Shown piece after piece: positions 3,298 to 39,877 of a DNA stretch of 52,898 bases. Below the pieces are notes generated by a model. The model did not search any database. It saw nothing but the letters and a program-made list of their open reading frames with translations, and was not told the origin of the DNA. The position numbers were made by a program, and so were the translations under genes. The stretch is taken from assembly GCA_900319955.1 (NCBI GenBank), contig ONQM01000015.1:1-52898 (forward strand), written 5' to 3'. The DNA is from an uncultured Eubacteriales bacterium. GTDB taxonomy: Bacteria > Bacillota_I > Bacilli_A > RF39 > UBA660. The first letter of the stretch is position 1; every line of letters begins with the position of its first letter.

Positions 3298-3755
3298 TAT
3301 CCTAATATCTCCTCTACTGATTTTCCACGAAGACGTGCAACTTCTTCTGGTGTTTTAATTGATTCAAGAGCTTTCATTGCAGCCTTTGCCATATTAAGTT
3401 TAGTTCTTGCTCCTAAAGACTTAGATACAACATCACGAACTCCAGCTAGTTCTAGTATTGCACGAACAGATCCACCAGCGACAACTCCAGTTCCGGCAGG
3501 TGCTGGCTTAATCATAACTCTTGCAGCTCCACTAACAGCTTTTGCTTCATGAGCAATTGTACGACCATCTATTAGAGTAATTTTAATTAAATTCTTATTG
3601 GCAGCTTGGATAGCTTTCTTGATAGCGTCAGGTACTTCTGATGCTTTACCAATACCTAAACCAACTTTTCCATTTCTATCTCCAACAACAACAGTTGCTT
3701 CAAATCTTCTTTGACGTCCACCTTTGTTAACTTTAACAACACCTTTAACATCAAT
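3297..3755 (-). CDS. rpsE: 30S ribosomal protein S5, 5' end unresolved (no canonical start codon)
   Basis: The frame of track ORF 3297-3515 stays open up to 3776. It reads ..[98 protein letters not shown].., which is full S5. There is no ATG, GTG or TTG between the in-frame TGA (3779-3777) and Met at 3515. Position 3755 is an ATT codon used only as a nominal boundary. Confidence 0.75.
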
Positions 3756-5294: not shown

Positions 5295-5308
5295 GTTTCA
5301 CCCTCCAA

Positions 5309-8769: not shown

Positions 8770-9600
8770 CTATTTACCATTACGACGACGTACTATTAAT
8801 TTATCTGAATGTTTCTTAGTACGAGTCTTTTTACCAATTGCAGGTTTGCCCCATGGTGTCATTGGTGCTTTACGTCCAACTGGAGCACGTCCTTCACCAC
8901 CACCATGTGGATGGTCGTTAGGGTTCATAACAGAACCACGAACTGTAGGTCTAATACCCATATGACGTTTGCGACCAGCTTTACCAATCTTAACTAGTGA
9001 TGAATCTTCATTACCAATTATTCCGATTGTAGCCATACATTCACCAAGTACTTTTCTTTGTTCACCACTTGATAATCTAATCATTACATATTTATCTTCT
9101 CTTCCAAGTATTTGAGCAGAAGCACCAGCAGATCTTGCAAGTTCTCCACCTTTTCCTGGACGAAGTTCTACGTTATGAATAAATGTACCAACTGGAATGT
9201 TCTTTAGTTTTAAAGCATTACCAGTTTTTATATCAGTTGCTTCACCAGCAACTACTGTATCTCCAACATGTAATCCTTGTGGTGCTAAAATATATCTTTT
9301 TTCACCATCTTTATATGTTATTAATGCAATATTTGCTGTTCTATTTGGATCATATTCGATTCCTGTAACAGTTCCTGGCACATCGAACTTATTTCTCTTA
9401 AAATCTATTAAACGATATTTTCTTTTTGCTCCGCCGCCTTGATGACGAACAGTAATTTTACCAGTATTATTTCTTCCAGACTTCTTATTTAAAGTAACTA
9501 CTAAACTTTTCTCAGGTGTCTTCTTAGTTATTTCTTCATTTACTAGCTTACTCATTTTTCTTTGAGCTGGTGTTACGGGTCTAAAATTTCTAATTGCCAT
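8770..9600 (-). CDS. rplB: 50S ribosomal protein L2
   Basis: 276 aa containing ..[13 protein letters not shown].. Confidence 0.95.
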
Positions 9601-11526: not shown

Positions 11527-11657
11527 TTAAAATCCTCCCTTCGCCTATATCTAGTATAGACTTGCTCCGTGTAAATAACCTGATACATTTGATTTTGTCT
11601 TTCAACTCTACCTGGTGTATCAGCAACCTCACACATCTAAGCAGCCACACGAGATTA

Positions 11658-23730: not shown

Positions 23731-24012
23731 TTAAAACAAAGAATCTAAAAAATCATTTATTTTATCATAATTATTATCAGAAATTTCTATAAGCAAATTA
23801 ATTTTATTAATTAAAAAATTTAATTTTTCATTCTTAGAAAACTTAGCATTGGCAGCTTTTATATAACTAAAATAAAAATTATCATTATAACAACACTTAT
23901 CTAATACATTCTCATCTAAATCATATGTAACAAAATTAATATGCTTATTTTTTAATTCACTAATAACCCTACTATAAGAATTAGAGCTAAACCCAAGTTC
24001 ATTATCTTTCAT
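23731..24012 (-). CDS. MutS-domain-I-like protein, C-terminal part
   Basis: 93 aa. The segment ELGFSSNSYSRVISELKNKHINFVTYD fits the MutS mismatch-binding domain pattern (GvP..a...yi.kLv..G.kVai.eQ). Its ATG overlaps the TGA of the upstream 41-aa ORF (ATGA). Confidence 0.4.
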   Translation of the reverse strand: MKDNELGFSSNSYSRVISELKNKHINFVTYDLDENVLDKCCYNDNFYFSYIKAANAKFSKNEKLNFLINKINLLIEISDNNYDKINDFLDSLF

Positions 24013-24134
24013 TTTATATTCAAATAAGTACCATCACCATTATAAGAATAATAAAATATACCACTTTTAACAATAACAAGGCTATCCTCATTATCTTCTT
24101 TATATTTATTATAAAATTTTTCTATTTTATTCAT
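24009..24134 (-). CDS. MutS-domain-I-like protein, N-terminal part (41 aa)
   Basis: My translation reads MNKIEKFYNKYKEDNEDSLVIVKSGIFYYSYNGDGTYLNIK. It fits the MutS N-terminal pattern (Y...K...pd.llf.r.GdFYe.f..DA). It starts 2 nt after the RT stop. Confidence 0.4.
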   Translation of the reverse strand: MNKIEKFYNKYKEDNEDSLVIVKSGIFYYSYNGDGTYLNIK

Positions 24135-24136
24135 AT

Positions 24137-25258
24137 TCATATCTCTAACTTATAAAACTTATTTTTTTCTATAAAAGAATAACAGTCGCACATATTAAAA
24201 TACCCTTGATAACTAGAAAGACTAGTATTATATTTAGCTTTATTATTATGTCTAAAATATCTAAGTCTTTTAGATATTCTTTTCTTTGTCTTACTATTCA
24301 TTATAATAACAAGTTTGTTATTCTTATTTAATAAAAATCTATATCCTAAAAAACTAATACCATTTTTAATAGAATAAATATGAGTCTTTCTCATATTTAA
24401 TTCAAGTTTTTCTTTAGCTAGAAATTCCTTTATTTTTTTATAACAATATTTAAGATACTCTTCATCTTCATGAAGTAAAATAAGATCATCCATATATCTA
24501 ATATAATATTTAATATGTAGTTTTTCTTTTATAAAATGATCTAAGTCATTTAAGTAATAAACCGCTATTATTTGACTAGTCATATTGCCAATTGGAATAC
24601 CTTTATTGAGATTATAATAAGGTATTTCTTTTAATTCCTTTATTTTTTCATTAATATGGGGATTAGAAGACTTCTTTAATCTATCAATTTCTTTATTTAT
24701 TTCATCTTTTATTCTAACATTAGTCTCAAGCCTATTAGTAGTTCCTAGTATTTCTTCTAAAATATTAAGAACATCTTCATCATCAATAAGATTCTTTAAT
24801 TTACTCATTACAATTTCATGATCTATATTATAAAAATATTTTTTTACATCTAACTGTAAAATATAAAAATTAGGATTATTAACTTTAATCTTATTTATAT
24901 ACTTCTTTAAATATTTAATACCAAAGCTAGTACCTTTACCTCTTCTAGTAGCAACATTAGTATCAATAAGTTTAGGTTCAATAAGAGGTAATAAAACTTC
25001 TTCACTAATTAAATGATTAATAATTTTATCAGTTAAACATTCAGACATAATTAATCTATATTTCTTCTCTCTATAAAGAAAAATATTATATTTCTGATGT
25101 TTAAAATTTTTTGATTTTAATATTTCATATATACTCATTACATTTGTAATATAAAAAGATTCAAAATTTACAATTTTACTTTTATACCTAGTAGTTTTTT
25201 TTACATCATTATAAACTCTTTCAATCTTATCAAGATTAAGTATTTTTTGATACAACAT
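24137..25258 (-). CDS. diversity-generating retroelement reverse transcriptase
   Basis: 373 aa. The RT motifs are LDVKKYFYNIDH, IPIGNMTSQ (the [I/L]GxxxSQ hallmark of DGR RTs) and YIRYMDDLILL (YxDD). It has no maturase or endonuclease tail. Confidence 0.88.
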   Translation of the reverse strand: MLYQKILNLDKIERVYNDVKKTTRYKSKIVNFESFYITNVMSIYEILKSKNFKHQKYNIFLYREKKYRLIMSECLTDKIINHLISEEVLLPLIEPKLIDTNVATRRGKGTSFGIKYLKKYINKIKVNNPNFYILQLDVKKYFYNIDHEIVMSKLKNLIDDEDVLNILEEILGTTNRLETNVRIKDEINKEIDRLKKSSNPHINEKIKELKEIPYYNLNKGIPIGNMTSQIIAVYYLNDLDHFIKEKLHIKYYIRYMDDLILLHEDEEYLKYCYKKIKEFLAKEKLELNMRKTHIYSIKNGISFLGYRFLLNKNNKLVIIMNSKTKKRISKRLRYFRHNNKAKYNTSLSSYQGYFNMCDCYSFIEKNKFYKLEI

Positions 25259-25610
25259 TCTTATTGCTCCTTATAACACCATATAAAAGTTTTTTTATAA
25301 TAATTAAAAGTCTAGATATACATTCAAGTTGGTGTTTACTTATATATCTTTTCTTATAACAAATTCTAATATACATATCATACATAGAAAGTTTGACATG
25401 AAAATCTTTTAAATACTTTTCACGTATTCTAGGGCTTCCAGAATTAACATTAAAATAAAATATACATTCAATAAGTTCATATTGTGTCTTTTCAATATTT
25501 TGTTTTAATATAACCTCTTTCTTAGGTAAATTAGGAAGTAAATTATTAAAATAATTAATAAGTTTATTAGTACTGTCAAGTAAATTAAATTTGAACTTTC
25601 CTTCTTCCAT
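25236..25610 (-). CDS. avd: Avd-like accessory variability determinant (four-helix-bundle family)
   Basis: 124-aa basic all-helical ORF. It overlaps the RT start by 23 nt and lies directly 3' of the TR-like block. Size, position and charge fit Avd. The call rests on sequence and context only. Confidence 0.65.
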   Translation of the reverse strand: MEEGKFKFNLLDSTNKLINYFNNLLPNLPKKEVILKQNIEKTQYELIECIFYFNVNSGSPRIREKYLKDFHVKLSMYDMYIRICYKKRYISKHQLECISRLLIIIKKLLYGVIRSNKNVVSKNT

Positions 25611-25920
25611 ATATAAATCTCCATAAAAACCAAAAGATATAGTTTATAGTATTTAAAGATAAAAACCTCTAAATACATCTATATCATATATTCTGACAAT
25701 TAAGTCAAGGAATGAACTTATTTCCAATCTGATTAGGAATCATCTTAAATAAGAATATGTATTAAATATAATTATTTATCCGGACCTTATCAAATCAAAA
25801 AATGAAACACATATAAGACCCACAGATTATATACTAAGTAAACTTAGTATACTACTTCTTCTGACTATCAGACATATCCAATAGTACTCAGTGACACTAG
25901 TAAATTACTAATCGTAGTAA

Positions 25921-26043
25921 GGAAGTTCCGGGCGAACCCCATTCGAGTTAGTCGCGTTATTGTCATCAAGAGCGCCGCCGCCGTTGACGTTGAACACGTT
26001 CGCATTCCAGGTAGAGTTGCCGAAGTTGACATAACCGCCAATC
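25921..26043 (-). repeat. DGR template repeat (TR) candidate
   Basis: A 120-nt block with 66/120 G+C (55%) in flanks of about 25% G+C. The minus strand reads in frame as FWIGGYVNFGNSTWNANVFNVNGGGALDDNNATNSNGVRPE, with 10 AAY codons in 34. The 3' end AATGGGGTTCGCCCGGAA matches the target gene at 26261-26278. Confidence 0.75.
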
Positions 26044-26148
26044 CAAAAGGTTAAACCTGCTTTTAAGAACATCCCTATATTAATCTATATAAAAATGATT
26101 AATACCATATTTTAAATATGTTAACATAAGTTAACAACAAAAATTTGA

Positions 26149-26176
26149 CTTTTTTCGCAAAGAGTTGCGAAAAAAG
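26149..26176 (-). promoter_or_regulatory. perfect 12-bp hairpin with 4-nt loop downstream of the DGR target
   Basis: Plus strand: CTTTTTTCGCAA AGAG TTGCGAAAAAAG. It lies 15 nt 3' of the frame-B stop of the target. It has no T-tail in either orientation, so it is not a standard terminator. Confidence 0.6.
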
Positions 26177-26191
26177 GATATTAGTCTTCGT

Positions 26192-27176
26192 CTATCCTAC
26201 AGTGTAAGGATTAGAAGAAGTACCATCTCCTCCTGTTATTGCATCTGCCCTCAGATTTATGACCGGGCGAACCCCAAGTAGGTGTCATAGTCCAGTATTC
26301 TGTTCCAATATTTGCATAATTAGTAGCTCCTTTTGTATAATTTGCAGCTCCATCAAATACTCCACCGGATGCACCTGCTAAAATTACTTCATCTGAAGTC
26401 ATTAATCCAATTGGATAAGTTAAAGCTTTATTTCCTTTAGATGAAGATGAAACAGTATATAAATCATTTACTTGTCTACATTTTAAACTTGGTTCACTAA
26501 ATACTGTACGAGTATAACCATCATAATATGTAGTTAAATTACTGTATCCGTAATAAGATCCAGATCTTGATCTATCACCACAGAATCCTGCATCAGTTGA
26601 AATATATTTTGCATAATTTGTAAGATTTTGTTGATACCAATTATCAACTGCTTGTTTTATTACACTAGAATTAGTGTTTTTAGTTGCTTCATCATATGAG
26701 CTTGCACCTACTTTACCATACATATAAAATGCATTAGCATTATCTGAATAAGATGTATTAAACTGACTATTAGTACCTGTTGTACCATTAAGAACAATTC
26801 TAACAGTCTTATCACCATTAACTCTAATTACTCTCCATATTTTACCCGCAAAAGAAACATAATTATTAGATGAATTACCTCTAAAGTAATAGCTTGTTCC
26901 ATCATCATCGTCCATTGCATAAACGCCTTCCTCTGATGTTGCAGTTTTAAAGTCAGGTGTTCCTTCACTAACTTTAAATGTTAAACCAGAAAGATTATGA
27001 ATAGTAGCTCCTGCAAGATTTTTTGAAACTGTCATTTTAATACTATTATTAGTTGTAACTTCTTTTGAAAAAGTAGCATGAGAAGAAGGAAGAAGTCTAG
27101 TAACTACACTTCCTAAAACAAATGCAGAAACTGCTAAAATAATCATCTTATTTTTACTCCACTTTACACTTTTCAT
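26192..27176 (-). pseudogene. secreted DGR target protein, frame broken at the variable-repeat position
   Basis: Track ORF 26211-27176 has a SipW-type-like signal (..LLPSSHATFSKE..), a YYFRG..WRVIRV.. domain, and ends ..EYWTMTPTWGSPGHKSEGRCNNRRRWYFF*. The other frame from 26284 reads HLLGVRPVINLRADAITGGDGTSSNPYTVG* (stop at 26194-26192). That looks like the genuine C-terminus and is the frame used by the TR. Confidence 0.7.
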
Positions 27177-35829: not shown

Positions 35830-35877
35830 TTTGACTCACCTCTCACCATATATAATTCATTATAACATAGCAATCAT

Positions 35878-35969
35878 CATTGTGCAACTTTTAAGCTTTT
35901 TGTTGTGCAATTTTTAGCCTTTTCATTGTGCAATATTTAAACTTTTTGTTGTGCAATTTTTAAAATAAT
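35878..35969. repeat. 4 x 23-bp tandem direct repeat
   Basis: The four units are cattgtgcaacttttaagctttt, tgttgtgcaatttttagcctttt, cattgtgcaatatttaaactttt and tgttgtgcaatttttaaaataat, with core TTGTGCAA. They lie between the stop of ATPase 36002-37279 and the start of ATPase 34549-35829. Confidence 0.85.
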
Positions 35970-38608: not shown

Positions 38609-39877
38609 TCAATTGCCTAAATAAGTAATCCTAGCATATCCATTACCTGAATGTCCTACTGCAGTAGAACCATCTGGTTGAGGCTGTCCTACATATTCTT
38701 CCTTTTCAGTAGTCCAGTTATATCCTGCTCCATCTATCATTACTGTATCTGTAAATATATAGTTACTATAATGGTAAGAACATGTTATATCTGTTGTTCC
38801 ATCTGTACAAGTATTACCACTAGAATCCATTCTTTGTTTTATATTATCTTCAGTTGAATCTTCTGTTATTGCTACACATCCATTATGTCCTGAAATGAAA
38901 GATGATCCTCCGCCACCACCATGACCTGTACCGCCAACAGTTGTTCCACCACCAGGACCACCTCCATAATAACCAGAACCGCCACCACCAGCACCAACTA
39001 GACTTGAATAATTAATTGAATTTCCGCCAACTCCAAATGTGCCTGATGTGGATAAATTATTTTCAGTTACAATTATTCCTGCACCTAGACCTAGATTTTT
39101 TCCAACTTTTCCACCAGAAGTTTGTGTTGCACCAAATCCATAGCATTCAAGATCACCATGAGCTTGATAGTAATTTCCATTATATCCTTTTAGACCACCT
39201 GCAATGCTATTATTATCACTATATGAATATATTCCATCTCCGCCGCCTCCGCCAGCAACAAGAATTCTAGATTTTAATGAATTAAAGTTATTCCAACTTC
39301 CACCATTTAATCTGACATCTGTAGCTCCACCACCGCCAGCACCTTGATTATGTTCTGTACTATAAACTTTTTGAGGTTCTAAATACCCTGTTTCATTATC
39401 ATTGCCTAACAAAGTTCCATAACCACCAGAACCGCCACCATTAAAAGAAACTAAAAAATCATATTTTCCCGTTTGGCCAACATAAACATAGATTATTTTA
39501 TCTTTATCAATTTTTAGTATTCCAGATACATATGCACCAGTTGAATATTTACCATATCGACCAGGAATCTCAGGTTCAGAGTTATTCCACGTGTAAGAAT
39601 CTCTTGCTACTCCTCCACTTGCTCCCCAAAGTTCAATTTTATATTTTCCAGTTTTAGGTACTATAAAGGTTTGTTTTCCTCCGGTGTAATCAAAATTATA
39701 GATTCCACCAGACTTGATTGCTATTTTATTTTTACTGTTAATAGATTTTGTGAATAAAGCATTACTACTGCCAATTATTCTTATACAATTAACTATTGTT
39801 AATACTGAAAATATAACTATACTTGTTTTTAATATTTTAATTATATTTTTTTCTTTATTATTCATCATAATCACCAT
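38609..39877 (-). CDS. secreted glycine-rich-domain protein
   Basis: 422 aa with an N-terminal TM/signal segment and a SipW-type-like motif (..IGSSNALFTKS..). It then shows FDYTGGKQTFIVPKTGKYKIELWGASGG.. and long GGGG/GxGG tracts. Confidence 0.65.
   Translation of the reverse strand: MVIMMNNKEKNIIKILKTSIVIFSVLTIVNCIRIIGSSNALFTKSINSKNKIAIKSGGIYNFDYTGGKQTFIVPKTGKYKIELWGASGGVARDSYTWNNSEPEIPGRYGKYSTGAYVSGILKIDKDKIIYVYVGQTGKYDFLVSFNGGGSGGYGTLLGNDNETGYLEPQKVYSTEHNQGAGGGGATDVRLNGGSWNNFNSLKSRILVAGGGGGDGIYSYSDNNSIAGGLKGYNGNYYQAHGDLECYGFGATQTSGGKVGKNLGLGAGIIVTENNLSTSGTFGVGGNSINYSSLVGAGGGGSGYYGGGPGGGTTVGGTGHGGGGGSSFISGHNGCVAITEDSTEDNIKQRMDSSGNTCTDGTTDITCSYHYSNYIFTDTVMIDGAGYNWTTEKEEYVGQPQPDGSTAVGHSGNGYARITYLGN

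Follow-up and report, generated by a model that had tools for sequence, protein, structure and literature searches.

What could a short G+C-rich block be doing in the middle of a strongly A+T-rich bacterial contig? This question is raised by positions 25921-26043 of ONQM01000015.1, a 52,898-nt contig of an uncultured Eubacteriales bacterium (assembly GCA_900319955.1), the whole of which is hereafter called the window. A sequence-only reading had proposed that the block is the template of a diversity-generating retroelement (DGR), built on AAY codons that can be mutated at their adenines without yielding stop codons. Our analysis supports this proposal, and we conclude with high confidence that the block serves as template repeat (TR) in a chromosomal DGR by which a surface protein is hypermutated; the host is an uncultured, A+T-rich, spore-forming gut Firmicute. 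At the species level, the element is a working DGR: it combines a reverse transcriptase (RT) of the DGR clade, an Avd protein of the bAvd family, adenine-specific differences between the TR and its variable repeat (VR), 21 VR alleles, transfer directed from TR to VR, a 3' boundary shared by the two repeats and a structured template RNA.

With 67 G+C out of 123 nt (54.5%), the block ranks first among all 123-nt segments of the contig, whose mean is 28.8% (standard deviation 6.0%), i.e. it lies about 4.3 standard deviations higher; this bears out the island of roughly 55% G+C initially described. In a 120-nt sliding profile, the G+C maximum was 0.50. Three further segments above 48% G+C occur at 3431-3556, 8815-8989 and 38860-39045; since no tRNAs were found in the window, these are not tRNAs. 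Read on the minus strand, the block corresponds to MFLKAGLTFWIGGYVNFGNSTWNANVFNVNGGGALDDNNATNSNGVRPELPYYD. The part that aligns end to end with the VRs of six other loci (L001, L002, L004, L009, L011 and L013) is a core of 113 nt at 25928-26040 on the minus strand (TGGCGGTTATGTC...GGGGTTCGCCCGG), and the block as first delimited is about 3 to 7 nt too wide at either end. The minus-strand reading and the 7 AAC and 3 AAT codons first counted were confirmed within this core (26040 to 25928), which comprises 37 codons. Twenty of its 25 adenines sit inside AAC or AAT codons, the remaining five being found in TAT, ACC, GAT, GAC and ACT. No codon of the core has A in third position, vs. 35-37% of the codons in the flanking genes, and its G+C content at third positions (GC3) reaches 0.70, vs. 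0.10 in the target gene, 0.12 in the RT gene and 0.14 in avd.

The block is part of a cassette which, on the minus strand, reads target gene, TR, structured RNA (about 235 nt), avd, RT and MutS-like open reading frames (ORFs). The RT (24137-25258, minus strand, 373 aa) matches RVT_1 with an E-value of 2e-22, and its best match among solved structures is chain 8ub7_A, described as 'Reverse transcriptase' in the 8ub7-8ube series (E=2.2e-28), in our view the RT of the Bordetella DGR (bRT); for retron and group II intron RTs, the scores were 1e-10 or worse. Its GIPIGNMTSQ motif aligns with GIPIGSLTSQ of 8ub7_A and displays the I/V/LGxxxSQ form of motif 4 that marks the DGR clade, while no NCBIfam RT model was matched at its cut-off. 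The avd gene (accessory variability determinant; 25236-25610, minus strand, 124 aa), which overlaps the RT gene by 23 nt, encodes a protein that matches PF22296 (bAvd) at E=2.4e-11 and 44.5 bits, for a cut-off of 40 bits. Against the DGR Avd model NF033474, the score was 35.6 bits (E=8.9e-9), below the 80-bit cut-off, and no PDB sequence was matched. Both genes are A+T-rich (20-21% G+C), as claimed at the outset, and the 317 nt separating the G+C block from avd contain no long ORF.

The decisive evidence comes from other assemblies of the species. Exact look-ups of RT and target homologues retrieved ten of them (L001, L002, L007 to L013, and L004, which is 80% identical). In these sister contigs, the gene adjacent to the TR encodes 347 to 361 aa and carries a stretch of 104 to 116 nt collinear with the block, namely the VR, matching the 113 nt of the TR at the 3' end of the gene. 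This VR differs in nearly every assembly, and its flanks are identical. When the six distinct VRs (those of the six loci named above) were each aligned to their own TR, 88 of the 97 substitutions fell on TR adenines, 57 adenines being unchanged; at the other positions, nine were changed vs. 512 unchanged (Fisher p=1.6e-59). The adenine-biased counterpart of the block that had been predicted is therefore present in other assemblies of the species, not within the window. JGI metagenome contigs searched for exact copies of the 3' flank of the VR gave zero matches.

The TR, for its part, is identical across eight sister loci bar one or two lineage single-nucleotide polymorphisms. Two TR changes of L013 (TTC to TTT and AAT to AAC) are both found in the L013 VR, and those of L004 (TAT GGC, GAT GGT GGC GGT) are found in the L004 VR. 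The recurrence of such TR-specific, non-adenine changes in the VR of the same locus shows that information is passed from TR to VR. Among 23 proteins of the cluster, 21 distinct VR peptides were counted. The ten AAY sites each show 6 to 11 residues among 17 alleles of the same length, and the G, V, W, F and GGGALDD scaffold is invariant. Several VRs also carry in-frame indels relative to the TR: a loss of 9 nt in P0121 and L007-L010, a loss of 3 nt in P0132/L001 and P0126, and a gain of 3 nt (an extra GGC) in P0125, P0128 and L013. Slippage by DGR RTs has been proposed for indels of this kind (PMC12875486), with which those of the species agree.

At the 3' end, the TR and the VR share the G+C-rich 14-mer TGGGGTTCGCCCGG, located at 26263-26276 (minus strand) in the target gene of the window and equal to the 3' end of the TR. 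Similarity ends right after it, as at the boundary formed by an initiation of mutagenic homing (IMH) sequence, and a homing role is predicted for the 14-mer. In L007 (about position 5300) and L008 (about 1393), the TR has a T-to-G change within the 14-mer (GGGGGTCGCCCGG) and the VR retains GGGGTTCGCCCGG; either the transferred tract does not include this position or homing has not taken place since the TR mutated. Six nucleotides after the 14-mer, an inverted repeat (ATCTG-AGGG-CAGAT, 26243-26256, minus strand) is a candidate post-IMH hairpin, although a weak one, with only 5 bp, an A+T-rich composition and a location within coding sequence. The ATCTG/CAGAT stem is retained with another loop in L004-L006, and similar repeats occur in L070, L074, L075 and L084. 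Hairpins of at least 5 bp follow 10 of the 33 high-GC paralogues vs. 5 of the 51 low-GC ones; a hairpin downstream of the VR has been described for 34% of DGRs and is hence not universal (PMC5758913).

The target codons just upstream of the VR (26277-26360) are unusually polymorphic as well, with variants such as GT[E/Y/G/Q/N/I]YW, DG[A/T/G/V]ANY and TP[T/C/I]GG. A second TR serving these codons ('GTEYW', 'DGAANY') was considered and rejected, as an adenine-tolerant match to them exists nowhere in the window. These changes travel with synonymous changes and therefore look like ordinary lineage polymorphism, possibly under selection next to the variable surface.

On its 3' side, the TR is directly followed by a structured RNA (25693-25927, minus strand), the counterpart of the Bordetella 'Sp', which was delineated from an alignment of 19 distinct units. 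From its 5' end, and on the same strand, it includes a conserved CUUCCUUACUACG (25913-25927), hairpin P1 (25897-25911), hairpin P2 (25864-25885; a 9-bp stem with a tetraloop, supported by five covarying pairs), a purine-rich GAAGAAGUAG (25852-25863), hairpin P3 (25830-25851), an AAUC/GAUU pairing, P4 (25825-25828 with 25726-25729), which encloses an insertion of about 95 nt specific to the lineage of the window, and hairpin P6 (25693-25708). A long-range duplex brackets the TR: its 5' strand, AGGGAUGUUCUU (26065-26076, minus strand), lies 24 nt upstream of the TR and pairs at 10 of 12 positions with its 3' strand at 25708-25719 (minus strand), placed after GGAAA. This duplex of 10-12 bp is found in every related unit at an equal distance, with differing and compensating sequences, for example GGGAUUAUUU/AAAUAAUCCC, GGGGUAGUC/GACUACUCC and GGGAUAAUCU/AGAUUAUUCC. 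The related units also have in common, after the TR, CUUCCU(U)ACUACGAUUAG, two hairpins, a purine-rich GAGAAGAAGUAG, more hairpins and GAUUGGAAA. The P2 tetraloop is UAUG in the window and UACG, UAUG, UAAG or CACG in the relatives.

RNAalifold predicted 32 pairs on the 19 units, of which 13 show compensatory changes; 98.4% of the cells are paired, none of 500 shuffles matched the observed values, and slid controls gave 22-51%. No Rfam family matched this RNA, whether at gathering thresholds or at permissive E-values. In Bordetella, an Avd-binding stem-loop 3' of the TR and a 'cPRT Stop' duplex are elements of the ribonucleoprotein, and they have been predicted in 207 of 278 Avd-containing DGRs (bioRxiv 10.1101/2023.10.23.563531). 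By position and shape, the P2 hairpin and the long-range duplex would correspond to this stem-loop and this stop duplex, respectively. A 17-nt post-TR motif was also used as a probe: all seven of its matches in viral contigs and most of its 45 matches in metagenomes came without the rest of the RNA motif and were attributed to chance, and these viral and metagenome contigs gave no sign of a phage-borne type of this RNA. As a side observation, two independent assemblies break or hold a 10-N gap at one and the same point (an N-run at about 1490 in L002; the start of L003), equivalent to 25784-25785 of the window (GATAAGG|TCCGG), inside the post-TR RNA insertion; strain variation and a drop in coverage are both possibilities.

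The window has a single TR-RNA unit. In several relatives, tandem arrays of TR-plus-RNA units lie upstream of one avd-RT pair, with a spacing of about 334 nt: eight units in L070 (5980-8570), five on the minus strand of L143, three in L100 and two in L107. Within the arrays, each TR encodes a different scaffold. For the L070 array, a cognate VR was found, among the loci retrieved, only for TR3 of the eight (93 nt, with nine mismatches at A and none at non-A positions). On the minus strand of L107, a target-family ORF of 667 aa runs into TR unit 1 (index 11351) and the RNA that follows, ending in ...GVRASFLLRLVNANALRVNGYDY and a stop codon, its VR and the 3' end of the gene being replaced by the TR; this fusion is either a VR/TR recombination or an assembly chimera created through shared k-mers.

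Concerning the target protein, its intact homologues (P0001 and P0121-P0143) measure 347-361 aa and belong to an unnamed family that counts over 700 relatives in databases. Pfam and NCBIfam gave no family match: 50 members searched against Pfam gave sub-threshold matches only, among which weak DUF6273 matches in three members, and the family profile had no match among PDB sequences. The AlphaFold2 model of the intact homologue P0001 is confident, with a predicted local distance difference test score (pLDDT) of 83. Compared with the PDB by Foldseek, its top matches are nearly all C-type lectin domains, including the C-terminal domain of Legionella Lcl, but with E>1; in BFVD, a collection of predicted viral structures, DUF6273 proteins of gut phages are matched with E-values from 3e-5 to 1e-3 and low TM-scores (0.3-0.4). 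The C-terminal 125 residues modelled alone gave a pLDDT of 46, which is unusable. Some metagenome-assembled genomes (MAGs) of gut 'Bacilli'/'Tenericutes' account for at least eight of the 79 loci listed. Among the matches listed (L014-L092), the family is expanded in MAGs of uncultured gut 'Bacilli', 'Tenericutes' and 'Mycoplasma sp. CAG:776', often as tandem clusters, with up to four copies within 10 kb (e.g. L036). Most copies are distant from an RT; G+C-rich, VR-like ends are nonetheless present in many of them, suggesting targets in trans.

By analogy with Bordetella, the cycle may be pictured as follows. An RNA running from around 26100 and covering the TR as well as the structured region after it would be bound by the RT-Avd complex, the 9-bp tetraloop hairpin acting as the putative Avd-binding stem-loop. 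The cDNA would be primed in cis, the TR being copied with random incorporation opposite A, and the duplex 26065-26076/25708-25719 would serve as the stop element at which cDNA synthesis ends, just upstream of the TR. The cDNA would then replace the VR, with the G+C-rich TGGGGTTCGCCCGG as presumed fixed 3' boundary. Each of the ten AAY codons could thereby yield up to 15 residues and no stop codon, the residues concerned being probably exposed on the predicted C-terminal beta-hairpin region of the signal-anchored surface protein.

Several points weigh against the conclusion that this is a working DGR template. The TR/VR pair is absent from the window and all evidence of activity therefore comes from other assemblies of the species. 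Nine of the 97 VR substitutions (about 9%) fall on non-A positions, and several VRs have indels. The RNA structure was scored on the very alignment from which it was derived and, because many of the units are paralogues from four arrays, the covariation counts do not represent independent events. The priming site, the RNA ends and Avd binding are drawn by analogy, and a C-type lectin fold of the target is no more than a possibility, given the E-values above 1 in the PDB and the low score of the domain-only model.

The missing VR deserves closer description, as the sequence-only reading had assumed a target VR nearby. The target gene of the window (26192-27176, minus strand) codes for a protein of the multi-copy family with an N-terminal signal-anchor and is broken: only a 321-aa ORF (26211-27176) is left. 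Compared with L002, 98 nt are lost at the junction 26276/26277 (minus strand; ...ACACCTACT|TGGGGTTCG...), or 95 nt compared with L001, whose VR is 3 nt shorter, and global alignments with both loci reveal no other difference over about 1.3 kb. As 98 is not a multiple of 3, the frame shifts; the ORF ends in an out-of-frame tail of 20 residues and the original C-terminus (GVRPVINLRADAITGGDGTSSNPYTVG and the stop codon; GVRPVINL...PYTVG) survives in another frame at 26192-26275. The lost tract runs from the first TR-homologous base (GGCGG...) through the last templated adenine, leaving ...ACACCTACT|TGGGGTTCGCCCGG... Apart from itself, the TR matches nothing in the 52.9-kb contig but the 14-nt TGGGGTTCGCCCGG at 26263-26276. 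The element is intact and its cis target lacks the rewritten tract so that, as assembled, the TR has no nearby sequence to rewrite.

Three readings of this deletion can be put forward: a real and dominant loss-of-function allele, a clonal minority allele followed by the assembler, or an artefact. That the VR-less target is an assembly effect or a minority allele, and not the state of most cells, is quite possible, short of being the view that we would favour outright. When the VR differs in every cell, each variant k-mer is rare, and the only path through the locus could be that of a clonal deletion allele, or of an error in joining or polishing. Consistent with this, the VR is complete in the ten other assemblies, whose surrounding sequence is otherwise the same, the truncated product of 311/321 aa is recorded from this contig only, assemblies of the locus break or hold N-runs nearby (L002, L003), and L107 is a probable VR/TR chimera. 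Two features of the junction fit less well. Its sides (ACT|TGGGG) share at most 1 nt and a de Bruijn assembler needs reads that bear the junction; moreover, the left edge coincides with the boundary of TR homology instead of following the invariant GGCGGTTATGTC, where a break in coverage would be expected. Slippage between microhomologies is not supported as a cause, as a TGG/TGG slip would produce an in-frame loss of 99 nt and a single T, vs. the TT and 98 nt observed; with at most one base shared between the sides of the junction, simple repeat slippage is no explanation.

The coincidence of the deletion ends with the boundaries of the rewritten tract is suggestive, in this single case, of an involvement of the element itself. 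The loss could have been made by the retroelement through aberrant or aborted homing, e.g. if the target was opened at both boundaries and rejoined without cDNA, or if the cDNA jumped template across the TR. One end does fall on the first base homologous to the TR and the other on the last adenine that is templated, each within 1 nt, and the VRs of the species also have in-frame indels (-9, -3 and +3 nt), for which RT slippage has been proposed (PMC12875486). We nevertheless regard this origin as unlikely. It relies on a single instance, slippage within AAC repeats is not expected to cause a loss that is not a multiple of 3 and, because the sequence preceding the VR shares no homology with the TR, a deleted cDNA would be unable to integrate by the known homology-dependent 5' step. 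A broader proposal appears to us equally improbable: that the 98-nt loss is a scar of the homing machinery recording both boundaries of cDNA integration in a Firmicute DGR, and that the TR-plus-RNA unit is a portable module, which relatives have expanded into arrays with as many as eight distinct templates per Avd-RT pair, each for a different paralogue of a large surface-protein family.

The composition of the block had initially been considered foreign to the host. Its distance from the contig mean (4 standard deviations) and the relic protein-level similarity to the target family upstream of the repeat could indeed evoke a decaying, functionless fragment of a horizontally acquired target paralogue. 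We give this possibility hardly any credence: strains share the block nucleotide for nucleotide, its copy in the target varying only at A, it is embedded in a covarying RNA, the adjoining RT and avd are host-like in composition, and an equal island exists in the TRs of relatives whose RTs are 44-80% identical. The cassette RT, avd and RNA have 20-26% G+C and the island is confined to the 113-nt repeat. In five related DGRs, the G+C content of the TR is 0.43-0.53 vs. 0.16-0.24 for the RT. Across about 115 target paralogues, the VR-equivalent ranges from 27% to 67% G+C and from 0.08 to 0.81 in GC3 (some paralogues reaching 0.81, others staying at about 0.1-0.25), vs. a GC3 of 0.09-0.27 for the rest of the gene, and every target copy for which a TR was retrieved falls in the high-GC group. 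As the island is restricted to the repeat and recurs in related TRs and in many VR-equivalents, it is not foreign DNA, and the claim of a horizontal origin is contradicted.

High G+C is instead a design property of the repeat, from whose constant positions, including all third positions, A is kept out because of the adenine-directed mechanism. The preference for C or G over T at silent sites is not explained by this mechanism; we conjecture that it stabilises the pairing between cDNA and target despite some 15-20 mismatches. G+C-rich segments are known to flank the mutagenised part of the TR and VR (PMC5758913).

The sequence-only reading had also credited the block with a short ORF context of its own, as if derived from the 3' end of a target paralogue. 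The second part of this claim is supported: in the TR frame upstream of the repeat, a resemblance to the target family persists (FLKAGLTFW vs. YLxxGxxFWTMTP; hhalign probability 98%), which supports a probable origin by duplication of the 3' end of the target. The first part failed, since the ORF is not conserved. This 'MFLK' ORF of 54 aa (25908-26072) begins with an ATG in the window and in near-identical sister contigs; in L004, the closest distinct relative, and in most related TR units its frame has no start codon, and the ORF is therefore incidental. That the block codes for a small 54-aa protein is accordingly a reading that we set aside as highly improbable, the ATG-initiated frame of the window and its near-identical sisters being outweighed by the startless frames of the relatives, by the position of the ATG within one strand of the conserved RNA duplex (26065-26076) and by the lack of any protein family match.

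Among the closest known systems is the prototype DGR of Bordetella phage BPP-1 (mtd-avd-TR-brt). Both it and the element of the window have an RT of the IGxxxSQ clade and an Avd, a TR that measures about 110-130 nt and contains AAY codons, adenine-specific differences between TR and VR, a VR at the 3' end of the target that closes in a G+C-rich 14-mer common to the TR, and structured RNA before and after the TR, with a hairpin capped by a tetraloop and a duplex joining upstream and downstream segments. Unlike the phage-borne BPP-1 element, that of the window is chromosomal. It also differs in its order (target, TR, RNA, avd, RT, with the TR upstream of avd), in the absence of an extended IMH, TR/VR similarity stopping after the 14-mer and only a weak 5-bp, A+T-rich inverted repeat following the VR, and in its target, which is not Mtd-like. 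A further difference is that the repeat stands out as an island in a host of 29% G+C.

DGRs with a MutS-like (MSL) accessory gene form 'Architecture D' of Wu et al. 2018, e.g. in Legionella pneumophila Corby (PMC5758913). As in these, avd and a small ORF, here weakly MutS-like, accompany the RT, and the target is surface-anchored with a C-terminal VR, whereas in the window the MutS_I match is sub-threshold, the gene is split into two overlapping ORFs and the target has no DUF1566 match. DUF6273 domains are reported to be C-type-lectin-like with the VR on a beta-hairpin, and serve as DGR targets of gut phages, e.g. in association with tentaclin (PMC10743442). The predicted structure of the target family of the window matches BFVD proteins with this domain; the family differs in being sub-threshold in Pfam, with TM-scores of 0.3-0.4, and in being cellular, signal-anchored and multi-copy (at least eight per genome in some MAGs). 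Finally, the DGR of Stenotrophomonas sp. SKA14 has two TRs (PMC6642488). Relatives of the window element resemble it in having several TRs per avd-RT pair, but theirs are tandem arrays of 2, 3, 5 or 8 complete TR-plus-RNA units; the literature searched yielded two-TR DGRs and no tandem TR-plus-RNA arrays.

A DGR as such is ordinary for gut microbes, and what is worth following up here is the exact excision of the VR, the G+C/GC3 signature and the TR-RNA arrays of the relatives. The block shows that, in an A+T-rich genome, composition and codon design suffice to recognise a DGR template. In this lineage of gut Bacilli, a high GC3 and the lack of third-position A mark both TRs and targeted copies of the surface protein, which offers a cheap screen for targets distant from any RT. 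A chromosomal DGR of a spore-former with a covarying template RNA also provides a second system, besides Bordetella, for the model of the stop duplex and the Avd hairpin. As for databases, since the contig was deposited without its hypervariable tract, its annotation shows a truncated target; assemblies of hypervariable DGR loci call for caution and read-level checking.

Regarding its surroundings, the cassette is located between spoIVA and spoVIF/trmB. The flanking genes are housekeeping and sporulation genes (spoIVA, spoVIF, trmB, tyrS, ackA), and the element is therefore chromosomal, in a spore-forming Firmicute. Downstream of the RT, two small ORFs of 43 and 93 aa (23731-24140, minus strand) overlap by ATGA at 24009-24012 and together resemble the MSL accessory gene. 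The 43-aa ORF has a weak match to PF01624 (MutS_I; E=0.0037, 17.9 bits, under the 20.6-bit cut-off), and both ORFs are called in all sister contigs. A distant relative, L060, possesses a single unbroken MutS-like ORF of about 125 aa. The split could be due to translational coupling, a frameshift or decay.

Between the target gene and the TR, a consensus scan pointed to a terminator-like hairpin (26149-26176, minus strand), with a 12-bp stem and a T-rich tail. It is followed by a promoter-like site, TTGTTA-17-TAAAAT (26109-26137, minus strand; 9 of 12 consensus matches), as a candidate start of the TR-containing RNA; promoter-like sites being no more frequent in the region than in shuffled sequence, this site is a suggestion only. 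Elsewhere in the window, an S10-Clostridia ribosomal-protein leader (RF03136) was detected at 11541-11647 on the minus strand, with 35.4 bits, barely above threshold, which fits a Firmicute host. At 35877-35962, a 23-nt unit containing TTGTGCAA (TCATTGTGCAACTTTTAAGCTTT...) is repeated in tandem, in three to four copies, which may form an array of binding sites.

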